A DNA stretch of 37,154 nt from a virus (taxonomy: Duplodnaviria > Caudoviricetes). A program made the translations under genes and the position numbers. Location of the stretch: positions 1-37,154 of the IMG/VR virus record IMGVR_UViG_3300032234_000156. One strand, 5' to 3'. The notes beneath the pieces are model-generated. The model ran no database searches. It saw only the letters and a program-made list of their open reading frames with translations, and had not been told where the DNA came from. This document shows positions 1 through 446 of the stretch, piece after piece. Position 1 is the first letter of the stretch; every line of letters begins with the position of its first letter.

Positions 1-18
1 AATTAGAATGTTTAATTA

Positions 19-121
19 TCCCTCTGCACTCAGTTGTAACAAGGCTACATGTTACCTTGCTATGGGATTAATGTTTTCATTACAACTGCTCACCCTTGGG
101 AAGTGAGTTATGGTGCATTAG
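19..121 (-). ncRNA. candidate twister-like self-cleaving ribozyme (P1-type order, long P5, weak or absent P1)
   Basis: The minus strand reads UAA-UGCA-CC-AUAA-CUCAC-UUCCCAAGG-GUGAG-[CAGUUGUAA...UUACAACUG]-AG-UGCA-GA-GGG-A. Pairings: P2 117-114/28-25, P4 107-103/93-89, P5 88-80/39-31, pseudoknots CCC/GGG and CC/GG. The order matches twister (UAA..P2..T2..P4 loop UCCCAAGC..P2'-GA-GGG). Deviations: CC/GG in place of GC/GC, a 9-nt L4 and no clear P1. Confidence 0.55.
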
Positions 122-231
122 TACTCTCACAAGGTTGCAACCCTTGTAGGTAGTCATCCTATTAAGTGATTGCATTACTAAACTGACTAAGTCTAATAGC
201 ATCCTATCCTTACCTGCAATTGGATGAGAGT
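122..231 (-). ncRNA. tRNA-like cloverleaf RNA (non-canonical, ~110 nt)
   Basis: 7-bp acceptor-like stem ACUCUCA(231-225)/UGAGAGU(129-123). 5-bp T-like stem CAAGG/CCUUG with 7-nt loop GUUGCAA. D-like arm UCC-AAUUGCAGGUAA-GGA, 8-bp arm UAUUAGAC/GUUUAGUA with 7-nt loop, extra arm UAGG/CCUA. The 3' end is A-C-U-A. It lacks the canonical UUCRA T-loop. Confidence 0.45.
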
Positions 232-255
232 GTATAGTAGTTCATTACATAGCTA

Positions 256-294
256 AGAGGACCCCGCAGCTCTAGACGCCACCGCGGGTTCTCT
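256..294 (-). other. GC-rich hairpin upstream of the tRNA-like RNA
   Basis: AGAGAACCCGCGGU / GCUGCGGGGUCCUCU imperfect inverted repeat in an AT-rich context. Confidence 0.5.
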
Positions 295-308
295 AATCCT
301 CCTACTAT

Positions 309-446
309 TTATTCTTCTTCATCATCAGGAAGACTAACATAGTAGCCTCCATACATCTCTGCCACATGCTCAGGATACTCACTATGATCTCTGAGGTCAT
401 TGATTTCTTGCAGTAGTTCTTCTCTACTCTTTCTTGATAGTCCCAT
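309..446 (-). CDS. small acidic hypothetical protein (45 aa, MGLSRKSREELL...DDEEE)
   Basis: ORF read by hand, ATG 446 to TAA 309, in line with neighbouring minus-strand genes. Confidence 0.6.
   Translation of the reverse strand: MGLSRKSREELLQEINDLRDHSEYPEHVAEMYGGYYVSLPDDEEE

Follow-up and report, generated by a model that had tools for sequence, protein, structure and literature searches.

Near one end of the window, the whole 37,154-base stretch of viral DNA analyzed here, two structured RNA elements lie end to end on the minus strand, and the locus raises the question of whether they make up one dedicated system or are two modules that have come to be neighbors. The original prediction described an RNA with tRNA geometry fused to a twister-like ribozyme, and a coordinate check finds both elements as claimed, on the minus strand, with every named piece in place. 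It went on to propose that the ribozyme acts as a counterpart of theta ribozymes and releases a decoy for anticodon nucleases or similar defenses. The explanation we favor, and consider probable, is instead that the RNA array of the phage has been shuffled and that two of its separate modules, a likely active twister variant and a four-way RNA other than tRNA, became neighbors in that way and not as a dedicated pair. Each element belongs to a family with its own conserved stems, the two families are distributed independently, and fusions between them are rare.

The window is a whole viral contig with an estimated completeness of 31%. It carries terminase, portal and major head genes, its gene order and size suggest a crAss-like phage, and BLAST against named phages returned no match. 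Both RNA elements sit at the contig end, downstream of small ORFs on the same strand. The nearest of these, at 309-446 (minus strand, 45 aa, with an acidic tail), lies directly upstream of the RNA array and has no relative among the fetched loci; between it and the first RNA is a G+C-rich hairpin (240-300, minus strand, z -1.4) that is unmatched in 122 loci. A scan for promoters and terminators over positions 1-1400 gave chance-level results only. No RNA data set is listed as holding the sequence; one run with a small share has reads over parts of the twister only, in two contigs from other sequence contexts, and is uninformative on ends or expression. Stable tRNA-like RNAs are known from phages T4 and T5, on which our literature search gave nothing. 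The same search found neither RNA family, nor a twister-tRNA pair, described, although large supplements of candidate motifs (e.g. PMC8040213) may hold these motifs.

The downstream element has the anatomy of a twister ribozyme. Read along the minus strand, it opens with UAA at 118..120 (U120, A119, A118), where the twister literature places the predicted cleavage between 120 and 119. The 5' half (89..117) holds one strand of P2, the CC strand of pseudoknot T2, P4, and a loop L4 that carries the CCC strand of pseudoknot T1 and the GG strand of T2. An auxiliary P5 (31..88, paired 88-80/39-31 around a variable insert at 79-40) leads to the 3' half (20..30), with the second P2 strand at 28-25, the predicted general base G24, and the GGG strand of T1 at 22-20. 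The pairings are P2, 117-114/28-25; T2, 113-112/95-94 (CC/GG); P4, 107-103/93-89; and T1, 100-98/22-20 (CCC/GGG). Both N-A-A at the cleavage site (120-118) and the general-base G after P2 are present in this copy, and the twister part of the window folds better than its shuffles (z -2.6). At the position of the P1 3' strand (14..19, minus strand), in-register pairing is absent, with a run of 0, a loss that the original prediction had not remarked on.

Scans of viral contigs with motifs from the two twister halves returned at least 120 loci from the 5' half (about 410 estimated) and at least 120 from the 3' half. A structural descriptor gave 126 unique hits, from which three look-alikes were dropped to leave 123 unique copies; in 200 loci it hit 49 times, compared with three times in the same loci after block shuffling. 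In this set P1, P2, P4 and T1 covary, with counts that are inflated by related copies among the 123. Double-sided changes occur at T1 in five copies (CAC/GUG in three, UCC/GGA in two) and at P2 in six, and P4 is represented by 21 sequence types. The catalytic A, A and G were preset in the descriptor, and their presence in every copy adds no separate evidence. For P1 the mean run is 2.6 pairs, compared with 1.3 for mismatched flanks, and none of 2000 shuffles reaches 2.6; the run is 0 in 25 of the 123 copies, the window copy included.

The T2 pairing of CC with GG, in place of GC with GC, had been singled out in the original prediction. The pairs themselves are correct: the strand facing GG is CC in 118 copies, UC in four and CU in one, and never forms GC/GC (n=123, with pairability required by the descriptor). 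Only wobble changes, and no double-sided ones, are found at T2 across the 123 copies. This is no departure from known twisters, since it fits the published “NC” pattern (available text of PMC11662667), and we reject it as a novelty.

Neither element was detected by Rfam or ARAGORN. Rfam searches that included RF03160 left the twister unscored in the window and its own genome, even at E 10, and at that same level gave no twister or twister-sister match in 11 loci, among them twisters with a short P5. The likeness to type-P1 twisters with P0 and P5 (RF03160; available text of PMC5408937 and PMC11662667) nevertheless extends to the order of elements, the UAA start, P2, P4, T1, a putative T2 that would fit “NC”, the G after P2, the optional P5, a helix in the upstream P0 slot, and a family P1 that covaries. 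What sets the phage family apart, besides the lack of a score from the Rfam model, is a T2 fixed as YC/GG, a short linker (3-4 nt) before P4, one extra U before the L4 loop, and a long and variable P5; the window copy has in addition lost P1. The 3' element is very likely to be a twister ribozyme, as first proposed, and we hold with high confidence that the family as a whole is a twister variant.

A cut at 120/119, leaving an ...A-C-U end with a 2',3'-cyclic phosphate, is supported in that it would follow from twister chemistry. P1 is dispensable in twisters in vitro, and a P1-less twister requires only one upstream nucleotide (PMC5408937, with PMC11662667 also reporting the former, each in the text available), and the window copy most likely cuts despite its missing P1. 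We think it unlikely that this copy is instead misfolded or decaying and rarely cuts. That possibility is raised by the absence of P1, by a damaged core in another fused lineage, and by a competing long-range fold that occupies about half of the ensemble; in the fused context the probability of P2 drops from 0.99 to 0.41, pseudoknots ignored. Yet no core position is disrupted and both pseudoknots are preserved, the loss of P1 is of the tolerated kind, and the upstream stem could fold first during transcription.

The upstream RNA, also on the minus strand, is closed by a 7-bp stem (231-225/129-123), whose 5' strand at 225..231 is acceptor-like. Next comes a conserved small hairpin at 213..224, consisting of a U, a 2-bp stem CC/GG and the loop AAUUGCA, in the place of a D-arm, followed by a variable, exchangeable arm at 147..212, here 66 nt and in the family 5-156 nt. 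A 5-bp hairpin at 130..146 (146-142/134-130) has T-arm geometry and a 7-nt loop, GUUGCAA, at 141-135. The 3' strand of the closing stem, with A122 and C121, completes the element at 121..129. The family tail is A-C-N-A, and in the window its last two positions overlap the U and A of the twister. The 7-bp stem, 5-bp stem and 7-nt loop on which the comparison with tRNA had been based are thus all present, although the closing stem of the family is 8 bp and the outer pair is broken (C-A) in the window copy.

A scan for the hairpin alone found 73 real examples among 120 matches listed, giving 72 unique copies; one probable look-alike was left out of a 71-copy set used for covariation. The descriptor for this RNA demanded pairing, and only compensatory changes count as evidence: in the 71 copies, double-sided changes compensate at six of the eight positions of the closing stem. 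After that stem the family order is U, a 2-bp stem, the loop AA(UU)GCA, the exchangeable arm, and a 5-bp stem with the loop RUUGCAA. The smallest copy is in L146, where the arm is 5 nt. When the search started from 3' halves alone, the GCA core was found in 96 of 98, and conversely the hairpin follows 87 of 116 5' cores, the rest being 16 without flank and 13 without the hairpin. Scans by the 5' core alone and for permuted forms are dominated by chance matches, with 6 of 120 loci passing the descriptor and none new in the second. The window copy alone folds no better than its shuffles (z -1.4), and its 5-bp hairpin has a pairing probability of 0.23; comparison among copies, and not folding energy, is therefore what supports the cloverleaf. 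In 185,579 species genomes, matches are confined to three assembled-genome contigs, which makes the RNA essentially viral. In L079, L613 and L637 another module, which begins similarly but has a 3-bp stem and a loop of its own, lies upstream of the RNA, about 85-105 nt before the T-like arm.

By its sequence, the upstream RNA is not a tRNA. ARAGORN called no tRNA in the window, and Rfam, including RF00005, gave nothing there at gathering score and two irrelevant matches at E 10. In tRNA, the T-loop has the consensus UUCRA and the D-loop carries GG; neither is found in any of the 72 copies. The arm at the anticodon position is unconserved, and anticodon-like loops number only four, all different, in 71 copies; position 73 is paired in the family. 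True tRNA identity is rejected on these grounds: no UUCRA, no D-loop GG, no anticodon arm. Comparison of its copies places it in a strongly conserved four-way-junction family, so far uncatalogued. The fold can be read in two ways, of which the tRNA mimicry first suggested is one.

The first of these readings, to which we give somewhat less than an even chance, is a non-catalytic, tRNA-shaped scaffold, made of acceptor and elbow with an exchangeable arm, that proteins of host or phage would handle or bind as if it were a tRNA. The stacked helix of 8 and 5 bp and the existence of the minimal L146 copy speak for it, and the A-C-N-A tail is the best argument for tRNA-like handling: the fourth base is A in 58 of 72 copies, against a background of 36%, and CCA is found in 12 of 72. 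The features shared with tRNA and with tRNA-like domains such as that of tmRNA are the stacked acceptor-like and T-like helices, a reduced D-like arm, a replaced anticodon arm and this tail. The lack of both tRNA loop consensuses, the paired position 73, the silence of ARAGORN and Rfam, and the capping of the acceptor-like helix in the variants described below all weigh against it, and neither a tag nor aminoacylation determinants are seen.

The second reading starts from the loop GUUGCAA, which matches the UGCAA of twister-sister ribozymes and not the UUCRA of tRNA. In four-way twister-sister, P2 is stacked on P3 and P4 on P5, with A7 docked in a UGCAA loop (available text of PMC5660989); by inference, its fold would amount to a tRNA cloverleaf in which the D-loop is opened and the acceptor capped. 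The GCA of the small hairpin could form a 3-bp loop-loop pairing with UGC, a fit in sequence with both sides nearly invariant, and the most likely fold of the upstream RNA has the GCA loop docked into the UGCAA loop, an arrangement common to tRNA and twister-sister. In sequence, the upstream RNA is a better fit to the twister-sister core than to tRNA. A doubtful possibility is that it is a circularly permuted, P1-less twister-sister relative that ends in P5 (the strand at 225..231), with the hairpin at 213..224 as L1/P2 and a self-cut at 221/220, a candidate site inferred from the numbering in PMC5660989; the locus would then hold two tandem ribozymes around an exchangeable arm.

The agreement with the four-way form, in the numbering of PMC5660989, includes the cyclic order of helices and their stacking partners, the GCA strand, and positions G5, C6, A7 and A63. 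Pair 8-61 is G-C in 69 of 72 copies, whereas two have the A-U of twister-sister; the G9-C60 pair is found in 68, and the UGCAA loop on its 5-bp stem, which corresponds to SL4, in 70, with its G-C closing pair in 69. A C62A twister-sister is active in vitro, so A at 62 is tolerated (PMC5660989), and the surrounding arrays are rich in ribozymes. Several points do not agree. G59 is U in all 72 copies, the extruded G35-U36 is missing 3' of the loop and two extra nucleotides (R-U) stand 5' of UGCAA instead, P2 is 2-3 bp and not 5, the P1 that closes L1 is absent from the common form, and U64 is present in only 22 of 72 copies. RF02681 has no match in the window, in its own genome or in five variant genomes, though a permuted form would not fit that model because of the permutation. 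Docking of a loop through an intercalating A is common in RNA and may arise convergently. With G59, the 3' G35-U36, the length of P2 and P1 all mismatched, we do not file the RNA as twister-sister; relative to RF02681 and to the TS-like ribozymes of PMC11620745 (available text), it differs further in ending with P5 and in matching no model.

Targeted scans recovered 11 unique opened variants, in L053, L065, L079, L172, L221, L611, L613, L636, L637, L660 and L688. Each has its acceptor-like helix capped by a loop and a long outer helix, followed by a run of U, that opens the small loop where twister-sister has P1. The opened fold is favored over the closed fold by 5-7 kcal/mol. These variants favor the twister-sister relative, but they share junction sequence and may represent only one to three lineages, their P1 register is not uniform, and the core GG/CC pair probability reaches 0.5 in only 4 of the 11. 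They bear on the scaffold as well: a capped acceptor cannot take CCA, which speaks against an essential end. A screen of 76 unique matches gave no opened variant without the upstream strand, truncated and look-alike rows aside. In L079 a twister lies within a few bases downstream of the opened variant.

We regard self-cutting by the upstream RNA as improbable. The larger picture in which it would figure, equally speculative, is of a widespread phage family of permuted, P1-less twister-sister at the border between tRNA and ribozyme, in which cuts at 221/220 and, by the twister, at 120/119 would excise a 101-nt RNA. If both cuts are true, that RNA would carry a 5'-OH and a cyclic phosphate, ends ready for ligation, along with the exchangeable arm. 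Should the upstream RNA self-cleave at all, the rare twister-sister class would gain a permuted member without P1, and catalysis by a tRNA-shaped fold would be demonstrated; should it not, it would be a tRNA-shaped scaffold of the phage.

Whether the two elements belong together can be judged from how often they are linked. Within the flanks fetched for the 72 upstream RNAs, a downstream twister accompanies 37, with spacings of 2, 2, 5 and 5 nt and then of 63-575 nt, while the remaining 35 have none, 11 of these with less than 300 nt of flank. The two copies spaced by 2 nt are the window and L516. A complete scan of viral contigs for fusions, with fixed motifs that would miss diverged pairs, found five contigs, one direct and four spaced by 3 nt, two of which are identical. 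Direct fusion is known from the window and L700, and near fusion from L701-L704. Against estimated totals of about 146 stretches bearing the RNA and about 270 bearing the twister, fusion is seen in about 3% and 2%, respectively. Five relatives identified by a neighboring protein, two of them complete genomes, have the twister in four cases and the upstream RNA in none. The fusion is not conserved in related genomes; a lack of linkage there, which the original prediction itself had named as refuting it, is largely borne out.

The slot in front of the twister is, moreover, shared. Upstream sequences of 107 twisters fall into 79 clusters; the upstream RNA precedes four of the twisters, and other modules precede five, four, four and three. 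A helix ends within 6 nt upstream in 64% of the 107 twisters, compared with 28% of control offsets, and this helix slot, by its location, is the known optional P0 position (available text of PMC11662667). Upstream hairpins on average lower twister cleavage, from 0.85 to 0.40 (PMC11662667). At least five other modules recur in the 60 nt upstream of twisters (L034/L113/L136/L146/L540; L017/L072/L103/L543; L001/L098/L240; L024/L104/L115; L071/L084/L190), with no Rfam match in the loci scanned.

That the pair is a selected twister counterpart of theta processing, maturing a tRNA decoy against anticodon nucleases or similar defenses, seems to us very improbable. In its favor, the predicted cut comes 2 nt downstream of position 73, within the 5-nt limit applied to theta ribozymes, a P1-less twister would need no more than one nucleotide of upstream sequence, and direct and near fusions do occur. 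Theta ribozymes, however, are HDV-like, with activity shown, and 58% of their occurrences are associated with tRNAs (available text of PMC10879173), whereas of the phage twisters, whose self-cleavage is predicted, only about 2% have the tRNA-shaped RNA 5 nt or less away. ARAGORN places no tRNA that close to any of 142 twister halves; the shortest distance is 84 nt, and 13 of 217 loci hold any tRNA. The window has twister anatomy and no HDV-family Rfam match. The cut would also cost the tail its conserved A at the fourth place, with U standing where C would be, so that nothing indicates A-C-U to be a mature form. Nor does the decoy have a substrate, given an unconserved arm of 5-156 nt and a few unrelated anticodon-like loops. 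With fusion rare, gene-level relatives lacking the RNA, no real tRNA involved and other modules in the same slot, both the dedicated theta-like pair and the anticodon decoy are unsupported, and we reject them, the former for unconserved linkage and the many other modules in its slot, the latter for an anticodon arm absent from the family. Of the original prediction, the observation is confirmed and the interpretation is supported in part, for the very likely twister identity and its predicted cut.

How the fusion came about is suggested by the tails themselves. UAA is found at the matching place in 9 of 72 tails, two being the fusions, and from such a tail a single recombination would be enough to produce a fusion. 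Recombination at the UAA common to the usual tail of the RNA and the start of the twister is the likely origin. Direct fusion has at least two origins, marked by the different arms of the window and L700, and close spacing (4 of 37) is commoner than a uniform spread predicts; selection may therefore have acted in a few lineages. In the account of shuffled modules that we prefer, the array would be transcribed together with the small minus-strand genes upstream, the twister would cut at 120/119 and fragment the transcript as it would behind any module, and the upstream RNA would be its optional P0 neighbor, a by-product set free with A-C-U and a cyclic phosphate at its end. Of all this, the fusion highlighted at the outset is the least general part. 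The twister family, by contrast, adds some hundreds of phage ribozyme candidates missed by Rfam and points to a use, the cutting of long early transcripts behind structured RNA modules.

Other features of these arrays were recorded. L657, L663 and L676 are near-identical metagenome contigs in which the upstream RNA is directly joined to a twister with an altered 5' half; that half is predicted to pair over the strand of the catalytic G, and the damaged twister is likely inactive. Hatchet ribozymes were noted in the arrays of L045, L017 and L702-L704, with matches above gathering score at L045:453-615, L017:273-439, L702:2157-2293 and L704:2243-2401. Ribozymes are reported to cluster (available text of PMC10085705), and Hatchet in the same arrays for that reason raises the prior for cleavage by the upstream RNA. 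A pistol-like match below threshold lies at L041:1662-1719. In L121, a complete relative with two twisters and without the upstream RNA, 17 tRNA matches cluster at 59-2228. The window regions 787-1110 and 2100-2486 are two paralogous small genes; one tandem pair of genes in L121 and L122 is matched by each of them, with 53-60% identity.
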